From: an uncultured Gemmatimonadales bacterium
Lineage (GTDB): Bacteria > Gemmatimonadota > Gemmatimonadetes > Gemmatimonadales > GWC2-71-9
Length of the DNA: 64,000 nt
Assembly: GCA_963771275.1 (NCBI GenBank)
Contig: CAVYSW010000003.1
Location: 832,001-896,000 of the forward strand
Reading direction: 5' to 3'
Shown: positions 2,235 to 21,574 of the stretch, piece after piece
How positions within the stretch are numbered: position 1 is the stretch's first letter
Layout of the letters: each line of letters begins with the position of its first letter
Made by a program: the position numbers and the translations under genes
The notes under the pieces: model-generated
Told to the model about the DNA's origin: nothing
The model's input: the letters and a program-made list of their open reading frames with translations, nothing else
Database searches by the model: none

Positions 2235-2265
2235 GCCACTGCCACAGTTCAGCTTAGGGCTTCGA

Positions 2266-2778: not shown

Positions 2779-2808
2779 CGCACCAGCCTTGTGCTGACCG
2801 CCAGTGGC

Positions 2809-3377: not shown

Positions 3378-3421
3378 GGCAGCGAAAAGGTCGGCAACGT
3401 ATTCTCGAGACCGTCGGGTCC

Positions 3422-4060
3422 TTGCTCATCATCATTGGATGGGGCCTCCTTGATCGGCTCGGGGCCCTGCGCATGCTGCGTCAGCGAATGCATCGCGTCA
3501 TCGACTTCGGCAATAGGCTGAAGACGTACTGGGATAGCGCCGGGAACGATCAACAGACCTATCTCGAACTCGTGCGCGATTCAGCGTTGATCCAGTCAGA
3601 GCTCGGTGGGTTCGGCGTCGTTGATTGGAAACCGCATGGTGCGAACTACATCATGCACGACTATCAACTGGTCGTGAATGGTCTTGGCGAGATCCAGCAC
3701 TGGTTGCCACAGCGAGCTCTCTTCTCAACGGTGGATCCGGCAAAGGACTATGCCGACGCGATTCGGGATGCGCTTCTGAGATTCGTCGGCGTACTCGAAC
3801 AACGCGAGCATCGAGTCCTTGCCGACATTCGGAATCCTCTGATTCTCTTCCGGGAAGGGATAAGAGCCCTTATAACGATCCCGGTCTGGATAGCAGGATC
3901 TCTTGGATTGATAACGCAGGACACAGTCGGAAGGGTCCGGACTGGCGCCGTTGCGCGCGTGCTCGGTGGGATAGTCGCAACCATCGGCTTCGTCTCGGCG
4001 ATCATCGGCGCTGTCACTGGCTGGCGTGCCTTCCTCGACATCATTCGCAGCTGGTTCTAA
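3422..4060 (+). CDS. Cassette protein: hypothetical membrane protein (start uncertain)
   Basis: Open frame filling the cassette; hydrophobic segments at both ends (e.g. VLGGIVATIGFVSAIIGAVTGW). Confidence 0.65.
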   Translation: MLIIIGWGLLDRLGALRMLRQRMHRVIDFGNRLKTYWDSAGNDQQTYLELVRDSALIQSELGGFGVVDWKPHGANYIMHDYQLVVNGLGEIQHWLPQRALFSTVDPAKDYADAIRDALLRFVGVLEQREHRVLADIRNPLILFREGIRALITIPVWIAGSLGLITQDTVGRVRTGAVARVLGGIVATIGFVSAIIGAVTGWRAFLDIIRSWF

Positions 4061-4075
4061 GTCGAATGTGCTGCC

Positions 4076-5373
<1,298 letters not shown>

Positions 5374-5407
5374 GCAGCACGCCGGTGAAGATCCAGAACC
5401 GCGCCTG

Positions 5408-6208
5408 ATGCGCCCGCTCATCGGGAGGCTTGGCGTGAATCCTCCACTCTGGTCGGTGCCCGGTCTGGCGACGGTCCTCGCGATTGCCGCGTTCTCACTA
5501 TGCGTTGGCTACGGTACCTACTGCTGGGTTCAGGTTCTGAGGAACCGACTCCCCGGCGTTCGTTGGTGGGAGGGCATAGGTCTAGAGGGCAGGGGGTTGA
5601 GTGATCTCGGCCACCAATACCTGCGTCGCTTCTACCGCTCGTTGGCCATCGGAGTCATGGTGCTGTTTGTGCGGGCCTTGGTCCCTGCGGGATCCCCGAT
5701 GCCCCCCAGCGATCTCCCACAAGGCCCGCCCCGCCCCATCGAAGAAGCGGTTTGGGAGGCTGTGTTGGCAGCCTATGCGACGCACGCGTTCCCGTCCGTC
5801 GCGGACAGCGTCCGTGCCAAGCTCCCCGCTCCCGTCGGGGGAGCGCCGTCTCCTGCGCCAGTCATCTTGCTCGCGCGCCGGGATAGTAGTGAGGCCCCGT
5901 ATCACCGTCCGTGGCTGGAGTCGCTAGCGGCTCGATCCTTGGTGACGTCGGTGTGCCGGGCATTGGGTGCAGGTTATTGCTCGGAAAGTGAGGTCAAGAC
6001 CTACCTTGAATTGCACGATCCTCAGTTCGTCGCCCCGGATACGGCGGTCGTCACCGTGTACGAACAGGGTGTCGACTGGAGTTCCTGCGGACATTGGCAC
6101 CGCAGCATCGGCGGCGATCTCACCGTGGAGTTTCGCCTAGCCCACGTTGCAGGCCGCTGGACGATCATCTCGCGCCATGTCCTGGACGCCAGTACGATTT
6201 CTTGTTGA
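5408..6208 (+). CDS. Cassette protein: hypothetical, two N-terminal TM segments plus soluble domain
   Basis: ORF fills the cassette; hydrophobic stretches near residues 20-42 and 78-92. Confidence 0.65.
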   Translation: MRPLIGRLGVNPPLWSVPGLATVLAIAAFSLCVGYGTYCWVQVLRNRLPGVRWWEGIGLEGRGLSDLGHQYLRRFYRSLAIGVMVLFVRALVPAGSPMPPSDLPQGPPRPIEEAVWEAVLAAYATHAFPSVADSVRAKLPAPVGGAPSPAPVILLARRDSSEAPYHRPWLESLAARSLVTSVCRALGAGYCSESEVKTYLELHDPQFVAPDTAVVTVYEQGVDWSSCGHWHRSIGGDLTVEFRLAHVAGRWTIISRHVLDASTISC

Positions 6209-6355
6209 TGGCGTGCTGCCTAACCGGCGCTTGAAGCTGGCCGGCCCTGTACGTTCACGAAGGAAGAGGTCTTTGCTCGCGTGGTGAGTTCCTGGGTGCG
6301 TTCATCGACACACGTTGCTGCTGGCGAGAAATGGCCGGCAGCTTAAGCGCAGATC

Positions 6356-7777
6356 TGTCAGATGACAAGACATCGCTCTGTCCGGGAGATGACAAGACAT
6401 CGCTCCCGTATGGTGGTCGGTCGGAACGGAGCCACCCCGGGGAGGGGAAGAAGGGGAGGCCAGGGTCGGTCCGCCACGTTAGCGCAGCCGGTAGTCATGG
6501 GTGTCGATAAGCTGTCCGTCGAGGTACACGAGGAGCCGCTGCTCGCTGACATCCACCGTGGCGCGGACGTATTCGTACACGGCGGCCACGGGGACGGGAA
6601 AGCGTTCGCCGAAGATATCCAGCACGCGGTCGCTCCGAATGAACCGCATGAAGTGGTAGCGGCCGCGCTCGGGCTTCGGCAACGGATGCCTCGGAGGCGA
6701 AGCCGTGTCTGGGAAGCGCAGGAGCGCGCCACTCGCGCGCAGCACCGCCAGGGGAGTACGGCCGTGCAATTTGCTGTACCGGTAGCGCGCATTGTGATGC
6801 TCCTCAAAGCGCCGGCTCTCGCGAGACAGGGCACCGGCGTCCTCCAAGGGAACCCGGCGGCGAAACCGGTGCTCATAGAGGTCGTTGAATTTCTCCACCA
6901 CCCCATTCCGCCACGGCTCCGCGATCGGGATGAAAAGCGGCTCCACCCCCTGGGGCAAACACAGACGGATCAGCGGCCCCATGCCGCGGGGGTGACGCCG
7001 GCTCCCGAAGAAGACCAACTCGTTGTCGACCTGCCCGTAGCGCGGCACCCCCAGGCGGCCCCAGGTGGCCCAGATCGCATTGATGGTGGCCTGGGCATCC
7101 CGCTGCAACGCGGGCTCCACCGCACAGCGCCCGGTGGCCAACTCCACGGTGTTCAGGCTGTAGAAGCGCAGCGGCGGCTTCCCGTAGCGGGGCCCGACAA
7201 AGTCCATCTGCTGGACGCTGCCGACCGCGGTGCCATCCGGTGCCGGATACTTCTTGCCCTTCGGCTGGTACGGCTCGGCATCGGGGGCCACCGCGCCGTG
7301 GCGTGCCAGGATGCGCGCGATCGTGCGCGCCGTCGGCACCTCGGGGGTCTGCAACGCCTCCAGCTCCCAGAGGATGGCCTGCGCGCCATGGAACGCCCCC
7401 TCGCGCTGGAGCTGCCCTCGCATCGCCAGCACCAGCGCCTCCACGGCGGGCGTGCACTGCCTCGGGCTCCGGTGCGGGCGGCGGGACCGATCGCGAAACC
7501 AGGTCGGATCGTCGGGGTCCGCTCGGGTCAGCCACTTCCGCACCCACCAGGGGGAGCGGTGGAGGGACGCGGCAATGGCACTGACACTCTCGCCTGCCTG
7601 GTACCGCTCGAAGGCTTGCTGGCGCTCCTGCTCGAAATCTGGCTCCATGCGCTCCCCGCAGCTCGCGGCCGGAACGCATGGTGCACCGCACTGCCCAAAA
7701 ACCAAGCCTCTCGCGTGAGTCCCAGAAGCGATGTACTGTCACTTCCCGGCGAGGGCGATGTCTTGTCATCCATCACA
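6356..7777 (-). mobile_element. IS481-like DDE insertion sequence with TGT...ACA ends and repeated end motifs
   Basis: GATC at 6352-6355 and 7778-7781; GATGACAAGACATCGC at 6361 and 6388 with inverted copies at 7755-7770 and (degenerate) 7728-7743. Confidence 0.88.
6479..7648 (-). CDS. IS481-like transposase (HTH plus rve/DDE)
   Basis: DRSRRPHRSP, QQMDFVG, QVDNE and PWRNGVVEKFN motifs. Confidence 0.9.
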   Translation of the reverse strand: MEPDFEQERQQAFERYQAGESVSAIAASLHRSPWWVRKWLTRADPDDPTWFRDRSRRPHRSPRQCTPAVEALVLAMRGQLQREGAFHGAQAILWELEALQTPEVPTARTIARILARHGAVAPDAEPYQPKGKKYPAPDGTAVGSVQQMDFVGPRYGKPPLRFYSLNTVELATGRCAVEPALQRDAQATINAIWATWGRLGVPRYGQVDNELVFFGSRRHPRGMGPLIRLCLPQGVEPLFIPIAEPWRNGVVEKFNDLYEHRFRRRVPLEDAGALSRESRRFEEHHNARYRYSKLHGRTPLAVLRASGALLRFPDTASPPRHPLPKPERGRYHFMRFIRSDRVLDIFGERFPVPVAAVYEYVRATVDVSEQRLLVYLDGQLIDTHDYRLR

Positions 7778-7847
7778 GATCCGTTAGACCGCGCTCACTA
7801 CCATCCCCGCGCGTGAAGAGCGCCTTCTATGGATCCACGGTCGTTCC

Positions 7848-8453
7848 TTGAATCAGGCCGCTGCTGATCTAGTCGAAGCCGCCAACGCTGAGCTTGTTCG
7901 CGCTTGGAGCGGACCGGAGGTCACTTGCATAGCAACCGTGCAGGGTGACGGGTCCTCAGACCGGCTGTGGCTGTTCCGGATCCGATCAGGGGACCAGAAG
8001 GTCGCCACGGAATTCGCAAAGCGGCTCCGGTCCCACATCGACCACCTGAAGCCACTGAGACTGAAACGCCAGGTCAACCTGCCGACACCACTTGTCGCCA
8101 AGCCATACGGAGCTGGCCACAGGCTTGATCTTGGACTGCACGTGGTCAACGATATCTGGAACGGCTCGTTGATGCTCTTCTTCTATTACGAGGGGCGGTT
8201 CTACAATCCTCCACACCTACAGCTGCCTGACATGCATCGATTCGCGGACGTCGCCGCGGCCCTCTGGCGTTCGGCCGCCTGCGATTGCCATGGTGCCACC
8301 CACTGCCCGGATGGCTGTTGGGAATGTTTCGACCTTCGGTGCAGCCGCTGCGAGGGAACTGGATGGAGGGACTATAGCCTCTGGCTACGCCGCGGCCCAC
8401 GCATCGATTACAGTAGCGGTTGGCCGCTGGCAATGGTTGAGAACGCGGTCTAG
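7848..8453 (+). CDS. Cassette protein: hypothetical with Cys-rich putative zinc-binding C-terminus
   Basis: CDCHGATHCPDGCWECFDLRCSRCEGTGW; stop codon lies in an R''-like GGTCTA. Confidence 0.6.
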   Translation: MNQAAADLVEAANAELVRAWSGPEVTCIATVQGDGSSDRLWLFRIRSGDQKVATEFAKRLRSHIDHLKPLRLKRQVNLPTPLVAKPYGAGHRLDLGLHVVNDIWNGSLMLFFYYEGRFYNPPHLQLPDMHRFADVAAALWRSAACDCHGATHCPDGCWECFDLRCSRCEGTGWRDYSLWLRRGPRIDYSSGWPLAMVENAV

Positions 8454-8539
8454 CTGCCGGGCGGCGTAGGCTGTGACTGGCGATTGGCGGGCAGACTTCG
8501 GCATGAACGACGCCGGACCCCGGATGCGAAGGAGAGGAG

Positions 8540-8716
8540 ATGCCAGCGGTACTGAACGAGATTCTCGACGTGTTCTACGCGAAGCTCTCAGAGTCGGATT
8601 CGCTCGATGAGCAGACGATCAAGGCGCTGCGCACACTCTTCGCGTCGGGTAGGAACCTCAGGGCGGACGACTTGGTTGAGATCCTCTCAGCCGCAGCGAG
8701 GGACCCTCGACCATGA
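8540..8716 (+). CDS. 58-aa protein translationally coupled to the ATPase (absent from the ORF track)
   Basis: AAGGAGAGGAG RBS; MPAVLNEILDVFYAKLSESDSLDEQTIKALRTLFASGRNLRADDLVEILSAAARDPRP; ATGA overlap at 8713-8716. Confidence 0.72.
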   Translation: MPAVLNEILDVFYAKLSESDSLDEQTIKALRTLFASGRNLRADDLVEILSAAARDPRP

Positions 8717-11166
8717 TCCAGATCGAGTCGGTCCGTATACGGGAGCTGCGGGGAATCCGGGATCTGGAGATCGCGCCGAACCGGAAGAACTTCCTCGTCT
8801 CGGGGCCGAACGGTTCCGGCAAGAGCGGTGTCGTCGACGCGATTCAGTTCGCCCTGACGGGCGAGATGGCGCGCCTTAGCGGCAAGGGCACCGGCGGGCT
8901 GAGCGTGCAGCGTCACGGGCCGCATGTTGAGCGCAGGGACGACCCGGCCGCCGCGCAAGTGTCACTGCGCTTCTACGTGCCGGAAAAGAACAAGTCCGCT
9001 GTGCTGACCCGAAGCGTCAAGACGGCAAAGACCTTTGGGCTGGAGCCCGACGATCCGGAAATCAGAGCGATAATTGAAGAGGTCGCGCAGCACCCGGCAG
9101 TTACCCTGTCGCGGCGCGAGATCATCAAGTACATCCTTGTCGAAGCCGGGCAACGGTCCAAGGAGATTCAGGCGCTCCTGAAGCTCGAAGAGATCGGCGA
9201 GACGCGGGGTGTGCTGAAGACCGTCAGCAACAAGCTATCCATTGCCTCCAAAGCGGCGCAGCGCGATGTGGAAAGCGCGGATGACGCGTTCCGGCGTCTT
9301 CTGGACGTGAGGGCCCTTTCGAAAGAAGACATCCTCGCGGCTGTCAACGCGAAGCGCAGGACGCTTGGTCTGACCGAGATAGCTGACCTTGCCGCCGACA
9401 CGAACTTGAGCGCGGGTGTCCTGGAAGGCACCGCACAAGCGGGCTTTCACAAGGAGTCCGTGCTTCGGGATGCGGAAGCTCTCCGCACAGTGGTGGCTGG
9501 TTTGCCCACGCTGGGCAAGAAGGAGGCCGAGAGCGTAGTTCGTGATCTGACCGCGCTGGAAGGCGACCCGGCACTGTTTGAAGCGATTACGCGCCGTGCC
9601 TTTGTCGCGCGCGGCCTCGCGCTTGTCGGGGATGCGCACTGTCCGCTGTGCGACAAGGATTGGGAAAACGAGGACGCCTTGAGGGCGCATCTGCAAGAGA
9701 AGCTTGCCCGGGCGGATAGGGCCGAGGCGGTGCAAGAGCGGCTGCTGGGAAACGGTGCTGCGATAGCCGGCCAGGCACGCCGGGTTGCCGGACTGGCCGA
9801 GGCGGTCGAGCTGGTAGCGAAGACGGACGGCCCGGATGGGTTGTACCAAGATCTCGGAGACTGGTCGGCGGCGTTGCGCGCCTTTGCATCGGAGCTGGAC
9901 TCGGTCGAGAAGATCCGCGGGCACCGCAAGCGGCTTGAAAACGGCTGGACTGCAGCGCCTACATCCTTGAACGAGCGCTTGGATGCGCTGAAGACGGCCG
10001 TTCAGGCCAAACCAGACCAGAGCGCAATGGTTGCCGCCCAGACTTTCCTGACGCGGGCGCAGGACCGGCTTACGGCATGTCAAAGCGCGCGGCGCCAGGC
10101 GAAACGCGCCGCGGCGGCGGTCGAAGCTGGGAGGGCCGTCTACAACACGTATTGCGAGGTAGCGGACGCGTATCTGAGCGCCCTGTACGAAGCGGTGGAA
10201 AACGATTTCGGCTCGTACTACCGCGACATCAACCCGGACGATGAAGGCGGCTTCAAAGCGAAACTCGCACCGGCGGAGAGCGGGCTTGATCTTGAGGTGG
10301 CGTTCTACGACAAGGGCATGTTCCCGCCTGGCGCGTATCACAGCGAGGGACACCAAGATGGCATGGGGGTGTGTCTATACCTCGCGCTGATGCAACGCTT
10401 GCTCGGCACTCGCTTCGGGTTCGCGGTTCTCGATGACGTGGTGATGTCGGTTGATCAGGGGCACCGGAAGGAGTTCTGCAGGTTGCTGAAGACGCGCTTT
10501 CCCGACACACAATTCATCATCACCACGCACGACAAGGTGTGGGCGAAGCAAATGCAGACCGAGGGACTTGTTGAGGCAAAGGCCGGTGTCGTCTTCCACA
10601 GCTGGAGCGTCCAGACTGGTCCGATCGTAGAACAGGCTGCCGGCGTTTGGGAGCAGATTGAAGCCGATGTCGCGAAGGGCGAGTTGGATGTTGCGGCGGG
10701 TCGGTTGCGCCGCCACATGGAATACATTGCCTGGGACCTCGCCGATCAGCTCGTGGCAAGGCCTCCTTTCCGCGGAGACCTCGGCTACGAGCTCGGCGAC
10801 CTGCTGCCAGCCGTTATCGGGCGGTACGGGGAGCTCCTGGGGCGGGCCGCCAGGGCGGCGAACGCGTGGAGCAACGACGACGAAAAGGCGAAGGTGGAGG
10901 CCCTGAAGACAGCGTGGTCGGAAGCTCTCGCCAGGCACGGCGGCGAGGCGTGGGTCGTCAACAAGGCCGTCCACTGCAATGCGTGGGCGGATTTCACCAA
11001 AGGGGAATTCCGGCAGGTAATCGAAGCGTTCAAGGGCCTGCTCGCACAGCTTTCCTGCTCGAAGCCAGCCTGCGAGTCATGGTGTTACGTGACGCCGCGG
11101 AAGGCCGATCCGGAGTCGCTGCGTTGCCGTTGTGGAGCGGTGAATGTCAATCTCAGAGCGAAGTAG
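8713..11166 (+). CDS. Rad50/SMC-like ABC ATPase with zinc hook and RloC-like (HEPN-like) C-terminus
   Basis: Walker A GPNGSGKS, CPLC hook, HSEGH signature, VLDD Walker B, TTHD; tail with RLRRHME, NKAVH and CxxxxC...CxCG. Confidence 0.8.
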   Translation: MIQIESVRIRELRGIRDLEIAPNRKNFLVSGPNGSGKSGVVDAIQFALTGEMARLSGKGTGGLSVQRHGPHVERRDDPAAAQVSLRFYVPEKNKSAVLTRSVKTAKTFGLEPDDPEIRAIIEEVAQHPAVTLSRREIIKYILVEAGQRSKEIQALLKLEEIGETRGVLKTVSNKLSIASKAAQRDVESADDAFRRLLDVRALSKEDILAAVNAKRRTLGLTEIADLAADTNLSAGVLEGTAQAGFHKESVLRDAEALRTVVAGLPTLGKKEAESVVRDLTALEGDPALFEAITRRAFVARGLALVGDAHCPLCDKDWENEDALRAHLQEKLARADRAEAVQERLLGNGAAIAGQARRVAGLAEAVELVAKTDGPDGLYQDLGDWSAALRAFASELDSVEKIRGHRKRLENGWTAAPTSLNERLDALKTAVQAKPDQSAMVAAQTFLTRAQDRLTACQSARRQAKRAAAAVEAGRAVYNTYCEVADAYLSALYEAVENDFGSYYRDINPDDEGGFKAKLAPAESGLDLEVAFYDKGMFPPGAYHSEGHQDGMGVCLYLALMQRLLGTRFGFAVLDDVVMSVDQGHRKEFCRLLKTRFPDTQFIITTHDKVWAKQMQTEGLVEAKAGVVFHSWSVQTGPIVEQAAGVWEQIEADVAKGELDVAAGRLRRHMEYIAWDLADQLVARPPFRGDLGYELGDLLPAVIGRYGELLGRAARAANAWSNDDEKAKVEALKTAWSEALARHGGEAWVVNKAVHCNAWADFTKGEFRQVIEAFKGLLAQLSCSKPACESWCYVTPRKADPESLRCRCGAVNVNLRAK

Positions 11167-11230
11167 AGGTGCTGCTGCGCCATCAGCGACTGGCCTCATG
11201 TCGATTGGATGAGTCGTGGAAATCACCGCA

Positions 11231-11360
11231 GTCTAACCCGGCCGCAAAGTTGACGAGCCGGATGGATGACTGAGATGATTGAGCGCACGGACAGATCAGG
11301 CACGCTCCGCCCTCCGTATGCCAGGCGAGGAAAGGCCCGCAACTTACGGCCTCGGCAGGC
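11231..11360 (+). repeat. Degenerate attC site
   Basis: GTCTAAC-CCGGCCGCAAAGTTG pairs with CAACTTACGGCC; R' reads GGCAGGC instead of GTTAGGC. Confidence 0.6.
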
Positions 11361-11423
11361 CGTATTGACGTCCCCAATGCTTGCGCCCTTCTCGTCGACC
11401 CCTTTGCTAGATCCGGCATCCTG

Positions 11424-13706
11424 ATGATCAGCTTCTTCAAGCGCCTGCTCGGCCTCGGTGAGGACGCGCCACGCGCGGCCGCGCCGTCGACGTCGTCGAA
11501 CGTGCGGCCTGCCCAGTCGTCGCCGCGGGTCCAGGACACTGGCCGGCGGGGCACCCAGGAGGAAGCGGGTGGTGAAGTGGTGAACCGATACTTCGAGCTC
11601 TCCGCTGAGATCGAGATGGGGAAGCGCGACCGAGATTATGCTCGCGCCGTCCGCGCCGCCCGGGCAACGTACTCGATCCTCCCAGCAGTCGTTCGGCAGT
11701 GGAAGCGCGAGTACGGCCGGTTTGACATCAACACGTCACACGCCGTCCATACGGCGCCCAAACTCATGGCCGTGATGGAGGACCGAGATGGTATCCGAGA
11801 GCTCCGCGCCGTGCTTGAGTCGGTGGAGGAGCTTCGTGACTGGCTGCCGTCCGCCGCGGAGGCGGAGGCCAACGTCGAGGTCGTGCCCCATATCGTGGCG
11901 CTCGTGGAGGCCGAGCCTGGGATCCTTCAGTCGTCCCTCAAGTCACGGCTCCCTGGAGCCGGCAACGCCGAGGCCGAGGCCGGATCCGCGATCTCGAACC
12001 TCGCCGCTTGGCTGGAGAAGGCCGGGCGCATTCAGCGAGTGAAGAGGGGCTTGAGCTACCGGCTCTATCCGGCCGGCTACCGCATCTCGACGGCGGCGGA
12101 ATCATCATCACCAACTTCTTCTTCGTCGAGGAGCGCCTCCTCGACTTGGCCATCATCAGCGTCCTCTTCCTCATCCTCTTCCCTCCTCGCCTCGGCTCGC
12201 CCGCCGCGCGCCCGGAACCGGCGCCCGGCGGCGAAGGCGCGCCTGCTCGATCTCGACTGGCTGCCCGTCGTGCGGCTCCCTCGGGCGCCGTTGCGGTGGG
12301 AGGAACGGGATCAACGTGAGACGGACGCCCAGAGCAGCGCAGCCAAGAAGACCAAGGCGTCCCGGAGCGGGAGATTCGAGGTGCGGGGCGAGGGTTGGGC
12401 GCTGGCTTCCGAGGAAAAGCTCGCCCCGGCCGACCGACCCGACCCCGCGTATAGGGACGTCTTCCCAACGGGCCGCTACACCCACTGGCTCGACCCGAGG
12501 GGAAGGCGGGAGGGCTTCGAATACGCCGCCTCCGTCTTGCGCGTGACGGACCGCGAGGGCCAGGTGGTGGCAGAGCGGGGCCTCGCGCACGACGTCTATC
12601 GGTCGGACGTCAACGCCGACGGGACCGGGATTCTCTTCCTCTCGCGCGAGGGGATGCTGCACGGCTACACCGAGGCGCTCGCGCCCTTCATCGAGGAGTC
12701 GCTGGCAGACCTCCCCGAGTACCGCGCCCAGGCCGACCGGTTCGGCATCGGCCCGCACGAGCTCAAGAACCACTCGCGGACCGTCGCCATCTCCTCCGAC
12801 CGGAGCCGCTACCTCGTCACCGTGGTGGACGAGGCGTGGTGTCTCGACACCGCGACCGGTCAAGTGGTGTGGGGCTTCCGGATGCCGTCCAAGGAAGGGT
12901 GGACCCGGGTCGTCGCCGACCGCTCGGAGCGCACGGGAACGAGCGCCGAGGTCGAGGCGGCGCTCCAGTTGATGCAGCTCGAGCTCCCGGTCACCCCCGA
13001 CAACATCACAAAGCAGTACCGGGTGCTCGCGATGCGGTTGCACCCTGACCGGAACCCGGGCGACCCGAAGGCGACCGCCCGGTTCCAGGAGCTGGGCGCC
13101 GCGATGGAGCTGCTGACGGGGTCCGATCTCTCCGGTCTCTCCGGCCGCGAGGTCGAGCGGGTGACGTACGAGCAGGTGCTCTCCACCTCCCGCGTCTCCG
13201 TGCCGGACGGACGCGGCGGGGCGGCTGACATGGAGTTCACCATTAGCATGGGCGTGAGCGAGAGCTTCGCCTCGGATTGGATCTACGCCGCCAACCTCGG
13301 GAAGGACGGTCGAGGGTTTCTCGCCGGGTACTCCGGCAAGGTGGTCGTAGTCTCCACCCGAGGGATCCCGGAGCGCGTCTACGACATCGGTTCGGTGCCG
13401 CGGCACATCGCCGACGCCGGGGAGCACCTCTATATCCTGACGGACACTCGGCTCTATGTCCTGGCCGGCGACCGCCTCGAGGCACTCGTCGACGTGTACG
13501 GGGCGAGCGACGTCGTGGTCGGCGACCGCGGCTTCGCGCTGCTCGAGTCGAAGGCGGTGACGTGGTACAACCCGGACGGCCGGCGCGTGGGCTCTGTTGA
13601 GACCAAGGATCCGCTCCGTCGCGTCCTTTCGACGAGCGGCGGGCTCGTAGTCGAGACACGACAGCACCGCGCGCGTGTCATTGGCGCGCCATCGTGGTGG
13701 GCGTGA
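11424..13706 (+). CDS. Large J-domain (DnaJ-like) protein with beta-propeller-like regions
   Basis: ITKQYRVLAMRLHPDRNPGDPKATARFQELGAAMELL (HPD); Ser-rich linker; beta-rich repeats on both sides. Confidence 0.8.
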   Translation: MISFFKRLLGLGEDAPRAAAPSTSSNVRPAQSSPRVQDTGRRGTQEEAGGEVVNRYFELSAEIEMGKRDRDYARAVRAARATYSILPAVVRQWKREYGRFDINTSHAVHTAPKLMAVMEDRDGIRELRAVLESVEELRDWLPSAAEAEANVEVVPHIVALVEAEPGILQSSLKSRLPGAGNAEAEAGSAISNLAAWLEKAGRIQRVKRGLSYRLYPAGYRISTAAESSSPTSSSSRSASSTWPSSASSSSSSSLLASARPPRARNRRPAAKARLLDLDWLPVVRLPRAPLRWEERDQRETDAQSSAAKKTKASRSGRFEVRGEGWALASEEKLAPADRPDPAYRDVFPTGRYTHWLDPRGRREGFEYAASVLRVTDREGQVVAERGLAHDVYRSDVNADGTGILFLSREGMLHGYTEALAPFIEESLADLPEYRAQADRFGIGPHELKNHSRTVAISSDRSRYLVTVVDEAWCLDTATGQVVWGFRMPSKEGWTRVVADRSERTGTSAEVEAALQLMQLELPVTPDNITKQYRVLAMRLHPDRNPGDPKATARFQELGAAMELLTGSDLSGLSGREVERVTYEQVLSTSRVSVPDGRGGAADMEFTISMGVSESFASDWIYAANLGKDGRGFLAGYSGKVVVVSTRGIPERVYDIGSVPRHIADAGEHLYILTDTRLYVLAGDRLEALVDVYGASDVVVGDRGFALLESKAVTWYNPDGRRVGSVETKDPLRRVLSTSGGLVVETRQHRARVIGAPSWWA

Positions 13707-13887
13707 CGCGCTTGGGATGTGTCCGGCTCCAAAGGAGCACACCAGTAGGTGTGTCGGATGCGTCCCGCCTGCACCAGGCCTCGCTCTTGGAGTTGCTGAC
13801 CATCGTAGGGTGGGTTGCGGACACTGCGGCACGGTCCTACCAACAGCCACGGCAGGTGTGCCGAGCCGCGGGAGTACCTAACGCGCG

Positions 13888-14029
13888 GTCTAACAAGCGG
13901 TTGGACGCTGCCGGGCGCTCGATAGGCCGAGCGCCCGCGCTACGACTGGCGCCCTCGCGGCCGATAAGGAATCATGTGTTTGTGTGGTGTAGGCGACACG
14001 CCGGCAGCTTAAGCGCAAGTCCGTTAGGC
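13888..14029 (+). repeat. attC site
   Basis: R'' GTCTAAC 13888-13894; ...CCGGCAGCTTAAGCGCAAGTCC-GTTAGGC 14023-14029. Confidence 0.88.
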
Positions 14030-14053
14030 GCATTCGCCGCCCGCCCCTGCTAA

Positions 14054-14579
<526 letters not shown>

Positions 14580-14682
14580 CCCGACCATATGAAAGCGCGG
14601 AGCTGCCCTCGGGCGGCTCCTAGGAGTTCCGGAGCAATGCCGCGAGGGCCACGTTCCCGTGGTCTCGCATAGGAGGCTCCGC

Positions 14683-15741
14683 ATGCGCTGGGTCGGGCTG
14701 GATCTTCACAAGCGGTACATCACGGCGTGCGCGCTCAACGATGCCGGCCAGATCGTTGGCGAACATCGGCGACTGCCGCCGGACATGGACGCGCTCGTCG
14801 CATGGATCGCGGCCCTGGGCGACGCCGTGACCGTGGCGATGGAAGCGACGCTGTATTGGGCGTGGCTCCACGAGCGGTTGAGCGCCGCAGGGATCGCGGC
14901 CGTGGCCGCGCATCCCTACCAGGTGAAGCTCATCTGGCAGGCGCGTTGCAAGACCGACCCCATCGATGCGCGCAAACTCGCCGAGTTACTCCGCACCAAC
15001 CTGCTGCCCGTGATCTGGGTGCCGGATGCCACGGTCCGGGCGCGCCGGCACCTGCTGCGGGGCCGAGCCTACTTGGTGCGGGTGCGCACGCAGCTGAAGA
15101 ATCGCATTCACGGGCATCTCACGACCGAGAACTGTCGGACCACCGTGACGGATCTCTACGGGCGCGCGGGGCGGGCGTGGCTCGCGACCGTGGCCCTCTC
15201 CCCGGCGGGGCGCGTCCAGGTGGATCTGCTGCTCGAGTTGGTGGATGCCCTCGACGTCCGGATTCACAGTCTCGACGATCGGGTGAAGCGCCTGGTGCAG
15301 GGCGATCCCGTGGCGCAGCGGCTGCAGACCTGGCCGGGCATCGGGACCTTCGGGGCAGCGCTCCTACTCGCCGAGATCGGGACGATTCACCGGTTCCACT
15401 CGGCGCACGAGCTGGCGGCCTATGCGGGACTCACGCCGAGCACACAGAGCTCCGGGGACAAGACGCGGCACGGCTCGGTGGGGCGGGCGGGGAGCCCCTG
15501 GCTCAAGTGGATCCTGATCGAGATCGTGCAGCGCCTGAAGCTGGCGCCGGGGCCGGTGGGGCAGCAGTATCAGAAGCTGCTGCGCTCCAAAGGCAAGGCG
15601 AAGGCCACGGTGGCGGCGGCACGGAAGCTGTGCTGCGATCTCTATTGGTGTCTCAGGGAGGCGTGGAGCTACGACGCGTGGCTCCGGCAGCATGAAAAGC
15701 TGGAGGTGCGCCCGAGGCAAACGCTGGGCTCGGCGGCGTAG
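14683..15741 (+). CDS. IS110/IS1111-family recombinase
   Basis: VGLDLHK, AMEAT, KTDPIDA, WPGIG, YAGLTPSTQSSG, VAAARKL; AGGAGG RBS. Confidence 0.95.
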   Translation: MRWVGLDLHKRYITACALNDAGQIVGEHRRLPPDMDALVAWIAALGDAVTVAMEATLYWAWLHERLSAAGIAAVAAHPYQVKLIWQARCKTDPIDARKLAELLRTNLLPVIWVPDATVRARRHLLRGRAYLVRVRTQLKNRIHGHLTTENCRTTVTDLYGRAGRAWLATVALSPAGRVQVDLLLELVDALDVRIHSLDDRVKRLVQGDPVAQRLQTWPGIGTFGAALLLAEIGTIHRFHSAHELAAYAGLTPSTQSSGDKTRHGSVGRAGSPWLKWILIEIVQRLKLAPGPVGQQYQKLLRSKGKAKATVAAARKLCCDLYWCLREAWSYDAWLRQHEKLEVRPRQTLGSAA

Positions 15742-15920
15742 GGCAGCCGTCCCCCCGGTAACCCGAATGGGCCACCTCCTTCGAACGAATGCTCCTGGAC
15801 CGCCGCGTCCGCAGAGGCGCGTGAAGCCAGCTTCGAGCTGCGCTCGACGGTGAAGGAGCTGTGGCGATTCGTGGGGCGCAGGACGCGGCCGCCCCGGCGG
15901 TCATGGGGAAGGTACGTCGG
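15742..15920 (+). ncRNA. Putative seek/bridge RNA in the IS1111 right end
   Basis: TAACCCG (15759-15765) matches the target and CAGAGGCG (15812-15819) matches the donor end; CTCCTTC/GAAGGAG stem. Confidence 0.65.
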
Positions 15921-16087
15921 TTTGACAACCGCGCTTTCAGAGGCGCGCTTGAAGCTGACCGGCGCGCCGCCGGGCGGTAGATATGAGGGGCTGGTGGGCT
16001 CCAGGAGCAGATCATTGACCAGACGTCTCGCCTGGTGCACGTTCGCGCCGGCAGCTTAAGCGCAGAGTCGTTAGACCGCGTCACCCT

Positions 16088-17293
16088 ATGTCCCACGCTC
16101 CGATGCCACCTTGGGTCTCCCCAGTCATCACGCTCCCGCTCGCGCTCGCGATCGCCTGCGGAACAGAGCTGTCACCCACGGTCAAGCGCTCGACGGCCGT
16201 CCAAGATTCGAGCGGAGTGCAGGTTGTCACTCACCAACTTGACTTCTATCGGCCCATTCGGCGCCTTGATGGCGACGTTCTGGAGATCGGTTCGGAGGTC
16301 GCGAACGATCCCAACTACGAGTTCTTTCACATAACGGACGTCGAGCTATTACAGGACGCGATGGTCATAAGCCAGGGTAACGGCGAGATTCGGGTCTTCA
16401 CCCCGGAAGGCAGGTTTCGGCAGCAGATCGGTCACCTAGGCGCCGGCCCCGGGGAGTTTAGATCGGTCGACTGGATGGCGGCGGTTGGAGACACTCTCGT
16501 GGTGTCTGACCCAGTCCAACATCGTGTATCTCTCTTCACGACCGCAGGTCAATTCTTGGAAAGCTGGATGCTGAACACCGTCCCACTCAAGCCCAATTAC
16601 GGGGCGGCGTGGGCTGTCGGTGCCATGGGCACCGGGCGCTTGCTGTTGAGAACCCGGGAATGGGGCGGGCACGATGTCGGCACGACGATCCGTAGGACTA
16701 CCAACGCCATTCTCTGGTCGCCTCGCTTCCGGACGACGCTCGCGGTCGGAGCGTTCCCTGGAAACGAGGTCCTCGCCCAAAGCATGGGGCTCCCACCGTT
16801 TCGGCGCACTCTGCTCCTGGGCGTCCTGGGTGCCAGTCGTACCATCGCAGTGGATACGGAGCATCCTGAGGTGCGTGTCTTCGTCGGTGACCGGCTCCTG
16901 CAGATCATCAGACTGAGCGGCAATCAAAGCCGGGACGTGAACAAGGCCACCGTCGACGACCTCGTTGCGGACCAGATGACATTCATACCGGATCGCGAGA
17001 CTCAACGACGAGTCGCGGCAAACACGCGCGGGTCTGTGACGCACACCTCTACACCCGCGCTCGGAGACCTTGTCGTAGGGACGGACTCGAGCATTTGGAT
17101 TTCTAGCTACGCTGTTGCCTCGCGTGGTCCCTTCTTTTGGATTGTCATGGACCGTGACGGTGCGATGGAAACCACCGTGGAAGTCCCAGAGTACCATGTT
17201 GTGGCCGCGGTGAACGACCGGTTCGTTGCCACGATTCACCGATCTCACGACACCGATGTGGAGACTGTGCGCCTCTTCACTCGGAGGGACTGA
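16088..17293 (+). CDS. Cassette protein: 6-bladed beta-propeller lipoprotein
   Basis: LALAIAC lipobox, DSSGVQVV, GHLGAGPGEF. Confidence 0.8.
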   Translation: MSHAPMPPWVSPVITLPLALAIACGTELSPTVKRSTAVQDSSGVQVVTHQLDFYRPIRRLDGDVLEIGSEVANDPNYEFFHITDVELLQDAMVISQGNGEIRVFTPEGRFRQQIGHLGAGPGEFRSVDWMAAVGDTLVVSDPVQHRVSLFTTAGQFLESWMLNTVPLKPNYGAAWAVGAMGTGRLLLRTREWGGHDVGTTIRRTTNAILWSPRFRTTLAVGAFPGNEVLAQSMGLPPFRRTLLLGVLGASRTIAVDTEHPEVRVFVGDRLLQIIRLSGNQSRDVNKATVDDLVADQMTFIPDRETQRRVAANTRGSVTHTSTPALGDLVVGTDSSIWISSYAVASRGPFFWIVMDRDGAMETTVEVPEYHVVAAVNDRFVATIHRSHDTDVETVRLFTRRD

Positions 17294-17309
17294 GCATTTT
17301 CTGGACGCG

Positions 17310-17451
17310 GTCTAACCGGCGCGCTTGAAGCTGACCGGCGCGCCGCCGGGCGTAGCGATGAGCGCATGGCACTTTCCCGGACCAGGTCATTGACCAGACG
17401 AATTGGCTGGTGCACTTTCGCGCCGGCAGCTTAAGCGCAGAGTCGTTAGAC
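17310..17451 (+). repeat. attC site (subfamily A; 2 extra nt after R'')
   Basis: GTCTAAC 17310-17316 ... GTTAGAC 17445-17451. Confidence 0.9.
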
Positions 17452-17778
17452 GGCCACAGCCACCCTCTTGCGTTCGATGGCCTTCGCGATGTCCCGCGGC
17501 TTGGCTCCGAGGGACAAGAGCGAGCGCAACAGCAGGTCCAGCGACACCGACGGGTCCCCAGCTTCCATCTTCGCGACGCGGGACTGGCTCGAACCCAGCT
17601 GCTTTGCCAATGCAACCTGTGTGAGGCGCGCCGCCCGCCGCCGCGCCCGCAATGACTCGCTCAGGGCCACCCGAAGCTCCACCAGAGCAGCCTCCTCCGC
17701 GTTCAGGCCGAGGAACTCCGTGGCCGAGCCAACGCGCCACCCCTTCGCTTCAAGGCGCTTCCGCTTCGTCTGCTTCAT
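17446..17778 (-). CDS. XRE/HigA-type HTH antitoxin
   Basis: LTQVALAKQLGSSQSRVAKMEAGDPSVSLDLL. Confidence 0.85.
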   Translation of the reverse strand: MKQTKRKRLEAKGWRVGSATEFLGLNAEEAALVELRVALSESLRARRRAARLTQVALAKQLGSSQSRVAKMEAGDPSVSLDLLLRSLLSLGAKPRDIAKAIERKRVAVAV

Positions 17779-18128
17779 ACTCCCTCCTCGCTCTCGGCAG
17801 CGCGATCGTAGGCCCGGAGCCGCCGCCGACAGACGTCGATCACGTGGCGCGGCGTCAGCGCCGTCTTCTTGCTGAACACGTCCGCGATCACGATCGCGTC
17901 CCGGTCCACCCGATAGACCAGACGCCACGTGGTGTCCGCATCGCGCACGCGCAGTTCATGGCAATGGGGCCCAATCGCCGGCATCGGCCGCGACTGCGGC
18001 AGCGTCAACATGTGACCCCCCTGCACTTGCCGGAGTAACACGCCCGCCTCGACGCGAGCCGCTGCCGAGAATGGCGGGGTCTTGACCTCCCCATGGAGCC
18101 AGACCAGCGGCTTGTCGCCCAAGGCCAT
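17775..18128 (-). CDS. RelE/HigB (Gp49-like) toxin
   Basis: KPLVWLHGEVKTPPFS...CHELRV...WRLVYR...FSKKT. Confidence 0.85.
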   Translation of the reverse strand: MALGDKPLVWLHGEVKTPPFSAAARVEAGVLLRQVQGGHMLTLPQSRPMPAIGPHCHELRVRDADTTWRLVYRVDRDAIVIADVFSKKTALTPRHVIDVCRRRLRAYDRAAESEEGV

Positions 18129-18135
18129 GAGGAAG

Positions 18136-18157
18136 TATATGTCATATGCGACATATA
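18136..18157. promoter_or_regulatory. Palindromic operator upstream of the TA operon
   Basis: TATATGTC-N6-GACATATA perfect inverted repeat just before the toxin ATG. Confidence 0.65.
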
Positions 18158-18294
18158 GGCAAGTGGCCGTCTCTAACCGGCGCTTGAAGCTGCCCGGCGC
18201 CTGCGCCGGGCCTAGGATTGAGCGCCTGGGACTCTCCGGGACCAGGTCATTGACCAGACGCGCCTCGCCTGGTGCACTCTCGCGCCGGCAGCTT

Positions 18295-19370
18295 TCTGTG
18301 AAGCGGTGCCCCGCGTCAAGCCCCCCCCCGAGCTTGCCATCGCTCCCTTCCTCCGTTGTCCCGCCCGTCTCGAGGTGCTGCTCAGCCTTCTGTGCGCGCT
18401 CGTCGTTGAGGCTCGTCGGCCTCGGCGCATCGGGGTGGTACGAAGGAGCGGACGGCGCCAACTAAGCGACGGCCTCGTGCGGCGGCCATACGCTGCCGCG
18501 CTCTCGACCTGGTGCGACCGCAGGATCCGCCAGGCGGCCTCGACCAGCAGGTAGCGGACCCGCCGATTCCCCGCCTTGGTGATCGGCCCCACGCGGCGCG
18601 GTTCGTTCGAGCTGCGCTCCCCGGGCACCACCCCCAGATAGGCCTCGAACTGGTGCGCCGCGGCAAACCGGGTGATGTCATCGATCGTCGCGTTGAGCGG
18701 CGTGAGCAGGGTGACCAGCGGGGCCAGCTCGGCGGCCAGCGTCGGCGACACCGGGAGCGCCTCGAGCTGCGCCCCCCACCCGCTCGGCCGCGCTGCTCGG
18801 CACCCGCAGGCCGTCGCGGCGCACCAGCGCCTTGGCGAGGGCGACGGAGCGCGTGCGGGTGCGCACCAACGCCTCCCGCACCGCCAGCTCCGCCCGCACA
18901 GGGCGCCGCGGCTCCGCGAGGCGGTGGGCCCGCCGATAGGTGCCCGCCTGACAGGCCTCCATCAACGTCCGCGCGTCCCGCTTGTCCGTCTTCACCCGCC
19001 GCGAGCGGGTGGCGTACATCGGCGCGTCGTTCGGATCCGCCACGATCACCGCGTGCCCCAACGATTCCAGATGCCGCGCCACCCACTCACTCTCCGTGCT
19101 CGCCTCCAGCAGCACCCGCGCCGGCGGCCGATCGGCCAAGACGGCAGTGAATCGCTCGCGGCTCGTCACGATCCGCCGGTCGGCGATCGTCCCGTCCGCG
19201 TGCCCGATGCAGAGCTGGCTCTCGCGTTTGTGCAGATCAAGCCCTATCGTATCCATTGGTAGCTGGCCTCCCGGTTGCGCCCCGTCGCAAGACGGTGAGC
19301 GCGTGAAAAGCGTGTGGGGCAAGCTTGCCACCACGGAACCGTGGAGGTCAGCTACCGCTTCATACCAACT
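18295..19370 (-). mobile_element. IS1111-group element with decayed transposase
   Basis: Subterminal inverted repeats TGAAGCGGT 18299-18307 and ACCGCTTCA 19354-19362. Confidence 0.85.
18463..19256 (-). pseudogene. IS110/IS1111 transposase pseudogene
   Basis: MDTIGLDLHK, LLEAST, KTDKRDA, then frameshift and deletions; YLGVVPGERSS and ITKAGNRRVRYLLVEAAW in another frame. Confidence 0.85.
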
Positions 19371-19393
19371 AAGCGCATGTCCGTCAGGCTGCG

Positions 19394-20597
19394 ATGAGAA
19401 GACGGCTCCGTTTTCCGATATGCTTCGCCGCCTGGCTTTGTTCGCAGGCGCTCGCTGTGAGCGCATGTCGCGTTCAGAGACCCACAGCAACGCCCCAAGC
19501 CTACGACAGTGCTGGCGTGCACGTCGTCGAACTCTCACTACGCGATCCATCGCGATGGGCCTTGTCTCCCGAGCCAGTTCTGGATCTGTCGACCTCCGAT
19601 GACGCGACTCGCGAGTTCTTTCACGTAACCGCTGGCATCTTTCTCTCGGACAGCGCGATCGCCATCGTCAACGCGGGCACCTACCAGGTACGAGTCTTCG
19701 CCCCGGGTGGCGCACTTGAGATCGAGTTTGGCCGGGCGGGCGACGGCCCAGGCGAGTTCCGAGGGCCGTACCGCATCTTCGAGGTGCTCGGGAGCTGGCC
19801 TCGCGGTACACGATATCTTCCGAGCAACCCTGTCGCTCTTTGACCGCACCGGCCACCTCCTCATTACGGCATCTCTGCCCCACGTGGCCGTCTGGTCCAC
19901 GGTGCTTGGTTGGCTCCAAGAGGATCGAGTGCTCCTTGGTTACTGGACCGTGGCACCGCTACTTCAGGAATTCCAACAACAGTTCACGCAATACCTCTCC
20001 TACTCTTGGACGAATGGGATCGTGGACTCTCTCGCACGCATCCCCTCAGGTACGATTGGCTTCATCGGGGGCCTCGAGCCATGGGGCGTCATAGGCGGCG
20101 CCCTCTTCGAGGCACAAGCGCACGCGGCGACCGTCGCCGGTCTGGCCATCCTCGGAGACGGAGCGGTACCCGAGCTTCGCTTGGTCGACAGACAGGGGGT
20201 CCTAAAGCGCATTCTGCGTTGGCACCACGACCCCAAACCGGTCAGGGCCGGAGACCTGGAAGCGTATCGGGCCGCGAGGCTCGGTGAGCGCCCCGATCCG
20301 GCCGACCGAGCCATGATGAAGAAGCAGTTGGCCGCTACGCCTGTGTCTCAACAGTTTCCGGCCTTCGCTGACATTAGGTCCGACCGCGACGGTCGAATCT
20401 GGATACAGAGCTATGTGCAACCGGGAGCGCGGACCCAGGTCTGGCACGTGGTTCGCCTCGACGGCAACCTGATTGCAGCCGTGGAGCTACCCCTTCGGAC
20501 GCAACTGCTAGATGCTGTATCGGATAAGGTGCTAGTTGTCGAACCTGATGAGTTCGACGTGGAGCATGTTCGGGTGTATCGAATACGTCAAAGGTAG
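19394..20597 (+). pseudogene. 6-bladed beta-propeller lipoprotein, frameshifted near 19790
   Basis: LAVSAC, DSAGVHVV, GRAGDGPGEF in frame 19394; continuation in ORF 19707-20597; paralogous to 16088-17293. Confidence 0.75.
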
Positions 20598-20611
20598 GGG
20601 CCCATCGCAGC

Positions 20612-20752
20612 CTCTAACCGGCGCTTACGCTGCCCCGCCCAGTACGTTCACGAAGGAACAACAGGTTGGCCGCGTGGTGAATTCGCAGGTACGTTCACGT
20701 CACGTTGCTGCTGCGAGTTGGGGTCGGCAGCTTAAGCGCAGGTCCACTAGCC
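20612..20752 (+). repeat. attC site (subfamily B), degenerate R'
   Basis: CTCTAAC 20612-20618 ... GCTTAAGCGCAGGTCC-ACTAGCC. Confidence 0.8.
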
Positions 20753-20813
20753 AGGCGCTGCTCCCTTCCGTCGCCCCACTTGCGGGTAGTACGCCAATGG
20801 CGTACCTTTCCCC

Positions 20814-21132
20814 ATGCGCTTCGTCGAGACCCCCGTCTTTCACGCAGACGATCCAGCGGCTCCTGACGGACGACGAGTACCGGCGCTTGCAGCTCGCCCT
20901 CCTGCTGCGCCCAGAACAGGGCGCGCTGATCCCCGGGTCCGGCGGGCTCCGGAAGATGCGTTGGGCCGCCAGCAGCACCGGCAAGCGCGGGGGCCTTCGG
21001 GTCATCTACTACTGGACCGCCGGGAGGGACGTCGCTTACATGCTGTTCGCGTATCGGAAGAACGTCCAAGAGGACCTGACCCCGGCACAATTGCGCGTGC
21101 TCCGGCGGCTCGTGCAGGAGGAACTGGAATGA
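20814..21132 (+). pseudogene. RelE/HigB-2-like toxin with a 1-nt insertion near 20838
   Basis: MRFVETPVF joins TQTIQRLLTDDEY...GSGGLRKMRW...GKRGGLRVIYY only if one T is removed (span 319 nt). Confidence 0.8.
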
Positions 21133-21419
21133 GGAAGCAGGACTTCGACCAACTGGTGCTGAGCATCAAGCAGGCCGGGCGGATCCGGCGCGGCCAGGCG
21201 CGCCCGGCGCGGGTCACCGTGTTCAAGCCCGCGGACGTCCGCGCGGTGCGCGCGCGCCTCGGGCTCTCCCAGCCAGAATTCGCGCTGCTGATCGGGGTGA
21301 GTTTGGCGACCCTCCGCAACTGGGAACAGGGACGCCGGGTCCCCGAAGGCCCCGCCCGGGCTCTCTTGCGGGTCGCGGCCGCAAATCCCCACGCCGTGGC
21401 GGCAGCCCTTGGAGCATGA
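21129..21419 (+). CDS. HigA/NadS-like HTH antitoxin
   Basis: LGLSQPEFALLIGVSLATLRNWEQGRRVPEGPARALL. Confidence 0.88.
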   Translation: MRKQDFDQLVLSIKQAGRIRRGQARPARVTVFKPADVRAVRARLGLSQPEFALLIGVSLATLRNWEQGRRVPEGPARALLRVAAANPHAVAAALGA

Positions 21420-21428
21420 ACACGCGCT

Positions 21429-21574
21429 GGCTAACCGGCGCTTGAAGCTGCCCGTCCGGGTACGTTCACGAAGGAAAAGGTCTTTGCTCGCGTGGTGAAT
21501 TCCTGGGTACGTTCATTGACACACGTTGCTGCTGGTGAGCTAGGGCCGGCAGCTTAAGCGCAGAGTCGTGAGGC
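21429..21574 (+). repeat. Last attC site (subfamily B), degenerate R'
   Basis: GGCTAAC 21429-21435 ... GCTTAAGCGCAGAGTC-GTGAGGC. Confidence 0.85.

Follow-up and report, generated by a model that had tools for sequence, protein, structure and literature searches.

An intact IS1111-type element in an attC site of a Gemmatimonadales bacterium and its probable guide RNA for the R'' end of attC

Introduction

How does a mobile element come to enter attC sites at one fixed base, and does it bring its own directions for doing so? The question is raised by a 64,000-nt stretch of DNA (the window) from an uncultured Gemmatimonadales bacterium (assembly GCA_963771275.1, contig CAVYSW010000003.1, positions 832,001-896,000), in which an element of the IS110 family interrupts an attC one base 3' of its R'' box TAAC, inside a cassette cluster. 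The analysis presented here makes it very probable that this is an intact IS110-family element of IS1111 layout which carries its own guide RNA for the R'' end of attC. It is made up of a short left end, a gene for a DEDD/serine recombinase, and a long non-coding right end in which, most probably, a guide RNA with secondary structure, similar in type to bridge RNAs and seekRNAs, is encoded. The locus had been described before from its letters alone (below, the sequence-only reading).

Results

The element occupies a fixed position in attC

The mobile unit is 1362 bp long (14582-15943, plus strand), begins with its own CG (14582-14583), the dinucleotide on which both candidate guides end, and terminates in CAGAGG; it is present as one copy in the 3.86 Mb genome. 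To its left lies the left half of the split attC (14574-14581, plus strand), which is the left target and consists of the R'' box GCCTAAC and a variable base N, here C at 14581. The right part (15944-16076, plus strand) starts with the target's own CG (15944-15945), continues with L'' CGCTTGAAGCTGAC, and extends to R' GTTAGAC (16070-16076). The site has the imperfect inverted repeats R''/R' and L''/L' of integron attCs, which recur between the cassettes of the window, and when rebuilt it measures 141 nt, compared with 142 nt for the intact attCs at 2093-2234 and 17310-17451 of the same cluster. According to the sequence-only reading, removal of the element with a CG core restores canonical spacing, and real sites bear this out: removal of the element and one CG gives GCCTAAC-CCG-CGCTTGAAGCTGAC, a string that is found at 9 empty attC 5' ends elsewhere in the genome, and these empty copies of the rebuilt string GCCTAAC-CCG-CGCTTGAAGCTG are in the main array. 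The genome holds 52 attC 5' ends of this type in total, 36 of which read TAAC-CGG. The six other attCs of the window read TAAC-CGG, one of them CGGCG.

Relatives were taken from a scan of one genome per species (40 loci, mostly in Gemmatimonadales bins) and from a metagenome scan (79 loci), and 102 elements among these loci carry the guide motif NNN-TAAC-NNGA-NN-GGGC 3' of the stop codon. About 100 relatives, mostly from Gemmatimonadota, occupy the same attC position, so that the fixed insertion place characteristic of the IS1111-attC subgroup is also found here. Their left junction reads TAAC-N-CG followed by AC(C/T)(A/T)TATGA, with TAAC in 65/68 elements and CG in 69/69, and the element is in the sense orientation relative to attC in 65/68. 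Empty sites were rebuilt and folded, and an end-paired attC fold, defined as at least 14 pairs between the first 26 and the last 32 bases, was obtained for 29 of the 48 distinct sites with enough downstream sequence, as against 3/48 controls with shuffled 5' parts; the folding sites were 62-150 nt long. An ungapped inverted-repeat test turned out to be too strict, as 2/48 sites passed it and the window's own site failed, and the folding test was used instead. Homologues without any link to attC would have spoken against the sequence-only reading; the TAAC flanks and the folds show that the relatives are associated with it.

The variable base of the right-end motif follows the target

The right end contains TAAC-C-CG at 15759-15765 (plus strand), the candidate left target guide. 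It has the sense of the attC top strand and would pair with the bottom strand, as is described for the left target guide of IS621 (PMC11208160). The sequence-only reading had matched this string to the left side of the target, and the comparison of relatives strengthens the match. All strings given in that reading were found where it had placed them. The guide N agreed with the target's base 3' of TAAC in 58 of 66 distinct insertions (A/A 16, C/C 29, G/G 9, T/T 4), where 22.5 matches are expected by chance from the margins, and no other non-trivial pair of right-end column and flank position had a higher mutual information. When the sequence 15742-15914 was shuffled 20,000 times with preservation of dinucleotides, TAACCCG appeared in 0.5%, AGAGGCG in 3.0%, and both in 0.025% of the shuffles.

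Near-identical elements were found in different sites, some with mismatches at N (guide T and target C in L052 and L055; guide C and target A in L042), and N therefore belongs to the target and not to the element. Part of the covariation reflects elements adapted to the attCs of their hosts, the arrays within one host being homogeneous, which is still what a pairing guide predicts. On these comparisons, the target-matching motif appears to be a real guide. At window position 15759, where the TAAC of the guide begins, G stands in place of T in contigs from two public runs (X2 and X3), which may be a strain variant weakening the guide or an assembly difference.

The donor motif ends on the element's own CG

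A second motif, (C)AGAGG-CG or CAGAGGCG (15812-15819, plus strand), is identical to what results when the element's right end is abutted to its initial CG, as in a circle junction, and is the candidate left donor guide. The sequence-only reading had described the string as the left side of the donor plus the core; it was confirmed, and GAGGCG was present at the same place in 77/77 distinct right ends, mostly as CAGAGGCG or TAGAGGCG. The right end thus has the left-target and left-donor segments of a bridge RNA or seekRNA, each running into the junction dinucleotide.

The two junctions of the integrated elements differed. Both junctions were known for 58 distinct insertions; on the left, CG was present in all 58, whereas on the right a dinucleotide other than CG was found in 40. 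The right-junction dinucleotide of 78 distinct right flanks was CG in 26, AG in 22, GG in 16, TG in 6, and another in 8, the second base being G in 70. Empty paralogous attCs had TAAC, 3 nt, and the right target in 16 of 17 cases, and the occupied sites consisted of those 3 nt plus the element; in the array of L026, for instance, the empty sites read TAAC-C-AG-CGCC and the occupied site TAAC-C-CG[element]AG-CGCC. The target therefore holds one dinucleotide, which is kept at the right junction, and the left CG must belong to the element. It follows that the mobile unit extends from 14582 to 15943; as the empty and occupied paralogous sites also show, insertion duplicates no target bases. The sequence-only reading had given an extent of 1364 bp (14582-15945), with both CG copies inside, which has to be corrected accordingly. 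Its 'CG core' stands in so far as both guides end on CG, but this CG represents the first two bases of the element itself, and the targets carry NG.

Since the integrated right junction is so often something other than CG, AGAGG-CG fits the circle, in which the ends are abutted, and not the integrated junction. No left junction with the target dinucleotide was seen, and randomly segregating heteroduplex is thereby excluded. It appears from these comparisons that a strictly shared two-base core, as in IS621, is not required for this element.

The following mechanism would best account for the data. The right end would be made as an RNA that binds the recombinase, and the element would form a circle. 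In the RNA, single-stranded TAAC-N-CG would represent the attC top strand at R'', the next base, and the first two bases of the element; it would pair with the attC bottom strand and set the crossover one base after TAAC. The AGAGG-CG segment, representing the right end joined to the left-terminal CG, would recognise the excised circle. The element would then enter between N and the next target dinucleotide without duplication or loss of target bases, bringing its own CG to the left junction and leaving the target dinucleotide, usually NG, at the right junction.

Three of the related loci showed further features. L016 and L026 are two copies of one relative that lie on one contig in the same cassette array, ~7 kb apart. 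One copy is at TAAC-T (guide C, a mismatch) and the other at TAAC-C (a match), and the right-junction dinucleotide of both is AG, which is also what the empty sites of this array carry. At L010:2401-3970, the final few gene bases, the entire non-coding right end and the right terminus of a complete relative are repeated directly behind it, and only then comes the right half of the attC; the RNA-coding end is thus partially duplicated in tandem.

The right end is conserved and has compensated helices

The non-coding right end is 202 nt long (15742-15943, plus strand) and comprises the candidate bridge/seek RNA and, 3' of it, the right end proper. Its first ~110 nt are nearly invariant across 58 diverse relatives. 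Alignment of homologous right ends, a check proposed with the sequence-only reading, yielded the guide-target covariation and the invariant donor motif and also revealed three hairpins with compensatory changes, all on the plus strand. In the hairpin upstream of the donor guide (15796-15811), alignment pair 57-70 was UA in 35 and GC in 23 relatives, and pair 58-69 was AU in 22, GC in 19, and CG in 16. The next hairpin, which contains CAGCTTCGAGC (15826-15843), had CG in 36, AU in 11, and UA in 4 relatives at pair 88-115, and GC in 33, AU in 14, and UA in 4 at pair 90-111. In the variable 3' hairpin (15888-15901), pairs 209-222 and 211-220 changed on both sides in 16 and 18 of the 58 relatives, respectively.

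A long-range helix is formed by CTCCTTC (15776-15782) and GAAGGAG (15852-15858; both on the plus strand) and encloses the donor-guide loop. In 67/77 distinct right ends a partner strand reached 7 or more of 8 pairs, a modest margin given that the mean best value after shuffling was 6.6; the central pair is T-A, C-G, G-C or G-T, or A-T, depending on the lineage. Taken together, this helix and the hairpins would place the donor motif inside a multi-branched loop. Such a location is reported by Durrant et al. for the donor motif of many IS1111 members (PMC11208160).

Candidates for further guides and pairings were also considered. The segment CAGCTTCGAGC at 15828-15838 is complementary in 10/11 positions to GCTTGAAGCTG at 15947-15957, a match that the sequence-only reading had suspected of being simply a hairpin. 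The suspicion was justified: the stem shifts from CAGC/GCTG to CGGC/GCCG across relatives by compensatory changes without following the right target, and CAGCTTCGAGC was ruled out as a guide. The loop between GGC and CGGG was rejected as a guide for the right target because, while its length varies, identical loops accompany different right targets. A CGAAU/AUUCG pairing was rejected by eye, its changes being one-sided and uncompensated. The target's CGCGCTT has a complement in AGGCGCG at 15815-15821, both being invariant among relatives. The right repeat begins with CCGCGCTT (15929-15936), which is the same as the rebuilt target, that is, N (14581) plus 15944-15950, through the first five bases of the right half; the right repeat and the right target both change by clade among the relatives.

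Layout of the element and its recombinase

The recombinase gene (14683-15741, plus strand; 352 aa) is the sole open reading frame of 14582-15945 and has GGAGG 6 nt 5' of its ATG. It is preceded by 99 nt of non-coding sequence, compared with the 202 nt that follow it. The subterminal inverted repeats are 10 bp long: the left one, GAAAGCGCGG (14591-14600, plus strand), lies 7 nt from the end (CG excluded) and is complementary to the right one, CCGCGCTTTC (15929-15938, plus strand), which is followed by the 5-nt end AGAGG. The repeat columns covary among relatives (RD13 vs LD-11, 96% complementary). Published descriptions of IS1111 elements give a longer non-coding region downstream of the recombinase gene (PMC11187229), subterminal inverted repeats of 7-17 bp (PMC11208160), and terminal extensions beyond the repeats that measure 7 (or 6) bp at the left end and 3 bp at the right (PMC11187229). 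The present element has the longer downstream region, 10-bp repeats and no duplicated target bases; its terminal extensions are ACCATAT on the left, 7 bp (9 with CG), and AGAGG on the right, 5 bp (4 if the repeat is read as 11 bp).

Pfam searches with the recombinase returned DEDD_Tnp_IS110 (PF01548; 1.2e-23, 84 bits) and Transposase_20 (PF02371; 3.9e-21, 75.7 bits). The protein thus has the RuvC-like DEDD domain at the N-terminus, Transposase_20 at the C-terminus, and the conserved D/E/D/D and serine positions of the IS110 family. It could be aligned to the solved structures of ISCro4 (9t56, E = 1e-17) and IS621 (8wt6, E = 9e-16), and the GxD, EAT, and KTDxxDA motifs as well as the SG of GLTPxxxxSG are all kept in this alignment. 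The conserved D, E, D, and D positions and the C-terminal serine are presumably the catalytic residues. With its Pfam domains, catalytic motifs, repeats, and long right end, the element is intact and of IS1111-type layout, in agreement with the sequence-only reading, which had called it an intact IS1111-group element.

The cassette cluster and its other elements

The attC cluster of the window extends over ~2093-21545, with no integrase nearby. An intact integron integrase gene (TIGR02249, 433 bits) is located on contig 7 (6294-7232, minus strand), where it adjoins an array (241-5705) that continues at the start of contig 3 (1-25000) and contains more than 40 cassettes. This main array and the intact integrase are ~810 kb away from the window's cluster. 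The empty perfect targets TAACCCG-CGCTTGAAG are at positions 3148, 3846, 6894, 7672, 8487, 13459, 21513, 22226, and 23104 of contig 3. A second integrase gene (contig 3:964508-965328) is present as two overlapping pieces (964508-964984 and 964960-965328), and an attC-like 5' end is at 965363.

The cassette upstream of the element encodes a BrnT-family toxin (14063-14347) and a small overlapping open reading frame, and is brnT/brnA-like. Because the insertion splits R'' from L''-R' of the attC behind this cassette, integrase-mediated excision should be blocked there. In the preceding attC (13876-14029), two R''-like boxes (ACCTAAC and GTCTAAC) occur at a distance of 12 nt and the 5' half is unlike that of other sites, which suggests a hybrid or a rearrangement. 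Between 6334 and 13876 lies an unusually long interval (~7.5 kb) between attC parts, which encodes an SMC/AAA-type ATPase (8713-11166) and a DnaJ-domain protein (11424-13706), and may be a large cassette or a defence-like insert.

The cluster contains another IS110-family element at ~4217-5378 (minus strand; open reading frame 4213-5220) with both Pfam domains. It has its long non-coding part upstream of the gene and abuts the R' end of the attC at 4076-4217, its stop codon overlapping the GTTA of R'. Two identical copies are present in the genome, the other one being in the main array (contig 3:4559-5748). This element and the one studied here are unrelated, with 27% identity confined to the C-terminal part. 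The sequence-only reading had spoken of a second, independently programmed attC-targeting recombinase, and with an unrelated IS110-family element at the R' end of an attC the description is fair. IS110-like remnants were also observed in the cluster, namely a gene with the N-terminal DEDD domain only (18678-19550, minus strand; Pfam 4e-10) and a weak tblastn match to the C-terminal domain (~2833-3009, minus strand; E = 2e-4).

Circle junction, promoter, and mobility

When the ends are abutted with a single CG, TTGACA at 15922-15927 (plus strand) and GACCAT are brought together with a spacing of 17 nt, and end joining may thereby create a promoter of which TTGACA would be the -35 half. The sequence-only reading had given this string correctly; as a -10 hexamer, GACCAT is weak and matches TATAAT in 3/6 positions. 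A hexamer TTGNNN was present at the fixed distance from the end in 63 of the 77 distinct right ends (TTGACA 32, TTGCGC 19, TTGACC 11, TTGATC 1), and the left-end hexamer of the relatives is GAC(C/T)(A/T)T or close to it. A scan for sigma-70-like promoters, which does not cover promoters of this phylum, found none in the integrated copy. Read-through from the cassette is another possible source of transcript, the element lying in the sense orientation behind it.

The junction of the circle would be CAGAGG-CG-ACCATATG, as predicted by the sequence-only reading, a prediction with which the fit of AGAGG-CG to the abutted ends agrees. Contigs of four public runs were searched over 14300-16200; the same insertion was present in two of them, and neither an excision joint nor a circle junction was found. 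Loose contig ends at 15942-15946 proved to be other attCs of the array. To judge from its intact sequence, the copy is probably still mobile.

Discussion

The anatomy of the element, its position in attC, the guide-target covariation, the conserved donor motif, the hairpins, and the asymmetric junctions are all seen in the sequences and support the view that an IS1111-type element here carries a guide for the R'' end of attC. Several observations weigh against it. N is mismatched in 8/66 distinct insertions. The right ends were located by a pattern requiring AGAGG, which makes their invariance partly a matter of construction, and as neither the donor motif nor the right end varies, their relation is one of identity and logic, without covariation. 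Right-side guides, whether for the right target or for the element's left end, were not found: when every right-end alignment column was compared with 60 flank positions, the mutual information revealed only the N signal, self-matches of a trivial kind, and signals linked to clade, and complementarity to the top strands of target and donor, scanned in sliding windows, scored the same as shuffled-partner controls. Rfam recognised no family at gathering score in the whole window, and the sole match on 15650-16000 was weak (E = 2.4) and outside the element. The recombinase is only 24.5% identical to the annotated IS1111 members IS5075 and IS4321 (over 89-95% of the length), its distance to IS621 being about the same, and recombinases from a plasmid collection are at most 42% identical to it; the subgroup placement therefore rests on architecture. 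Finally, the genome contains a single copy in spite of 9 perfect empty targets.

The absence of right-side guides from the scans would fit an element whose recombinase recognises folded or double-stranded attC by itself, as an integrase does, TAAC-N-CG and AGAGGCG being incidental or serving some other end such as stabilising the mRNA or binding protein; the right end, invariant over most of its length, could be a scaffold to which protein binds. We consider this highly improbable, since the variable base of the motif follows the target through four nucleotides at more than twice the expected frequency (58/66 vs 22.5), both motifs occur together in 0.025% of shuffles, and an RNA requirement is reported from experiments with related families (PMC11187229, PMC11208160). 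If, instead, a guide RNA operated exactly as in IS621, a CG core would be needed in target and donor, both strands would be exchanged, and both junctions would inherit the core. In this window both junctions are indeed CG and both guides end in CG, and CG is the commonest right-junction dinucleotide (26/78), compared with 1/16 neighbouring three-base empty sites. Such a mode is nevertheless improbable: a departure from CG was seen at 40/58 right junctions and 0/58 left junctions, although a mismatched 2-bp heteroduplex segregating at random should put around half of the changes on the left, and the right-junction dinucleotide is also that of empty sites in the same arrays (for instance TAAC-C-AG in the array of L026).

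A guide-carrying element may also have come to rest. The single copy beside 9 perfect empty targets TAACCCG-CGCTTGAAG in the main array, and the lack of a promoter-like site in the integrated form, would be expected of a copy that is intact in sequence yet silent or disabled in its host, and thus fixed. This is unlikely but has to be taken seriously. The reading frame is open, and the catalytic positions, both ends, both guides, and all conserved hairpins are intact; relatives with two copies in one array exist (L016 and L026), and low copy number is common where a promoter forms only in the circle. We thus favour an element that has kept both its guides and its capacity to move.

A more far-reaching proposal can be made, tentatively and with more doubt than confidence, namely that the element represents a deep-branching lineage in which attC targeting was gained independently of the Pseudomonas IS1111-attC group and in which integration is strand-asymmetric. 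The two groups would then use the same TAAC of R'' and the same attC strand through the other guide slot and in the opposite orientation. If so, the crossover of only one strand would be inherited, as in a one-strand transfer completed by replication, and the cut would lie 5' of the dinucleotide, whereas IS621 is described as being cut 3' of it. The top strands of IS621 are stated to be cut next to the core (PMC13626964), and for another IS110 element copy-out and insertion mainly of the top strand are reported in the abstract of a preprint (10.1101/2025.10.25.684509).

With about 100 relatives and 66 distinct insertions, the family constitutes a natural data set in which the guide base has been re-programmed to four nucleotides in step with the attCs of the hosts. 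It extends the attC-targeting lifestyle to the chromosomal integrons of Gemmatimonadota, with a recombinase far from the named members compared. It also provides genomic evidence that the junction dinucleotide may mismatch between target and element and be inherited asymmetrically, which bears on whether these recombinases exchange one strand or two.

Comparison with known systems

We found no paper on this Gemmatimonadota attC/IS110 lineage, subscription journals being outside the coverage of the search. IS1111 elements that target attC and have seekRNAs are already known, and the present element is a new, distant member of that company. The published ones include ISPst6, ISPa21, ISKpn4, and ISPa25, and the seekRNAs of ISKpn4 and ISPst6 are reported to co-purify with the recombinase (PMC11187229). 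Like the IS1111-attC subgroup, which is defined by the monophyletic ISPst6/ISPa21 clade of recombinases, the element has a DEDD recombinase, a long non-coding region downstream of the gene, and a place of insertion near the 5' end of attC. Members of that group are described as lying antisense to cassette transcription near the attC 5' end (PMC3001079), and the first match of their seekRNAs as pairing with the top strand (PMC11187229). Here, by contrast, the gene runs with attC (R'' to R') and with the upstream brnT/brnA-like cassette, and TAAC, which in those accounts belongs to the top-strand-pairing first match, is in a segment of the left-target type that would pair with the bottom strand. 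The non-coding region of ISKpn4 holds a TAAC-bearing segment, GATAACAAT, with TTTGAACG further on (PMC11187229, Supplementary Table 1), and the RNAs of both elements could pair with the attC bottom strand at R''. The guide of ISKpn4 as listed there reaches 3 bases past TAAC, whereas the crossover of the present element, as indicated by its guides, would be one base past it. The hosts are chromosomal arrays of Gemmatimonadota, and those of the known group Pseudomonas or class 1 integrons.

The resemblance to IS621 lies in a 5'-side guide of top-strand sense that comprises the left flank and the dinucleotide, for target and donor alike (PMC11208160), and in an alignable recombinase with the catalytic positions kept. 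The element differs from IS621 in having its RNA in the right and not the left end, long subterminal repeats, and a donor guide that would lie in a multi-branched loop; moreover, its target dinucleotide may differ from the element's own and be inherited at the right junction only. Group IIC-attC introns are likewise mobile elements described as using RNA pairing to enter attC near its 5' end (PMC3001079), but the element studied here is a DNA recombinase element with inverted repeats and has neither a reverse transcriptase nor a ribozyme.

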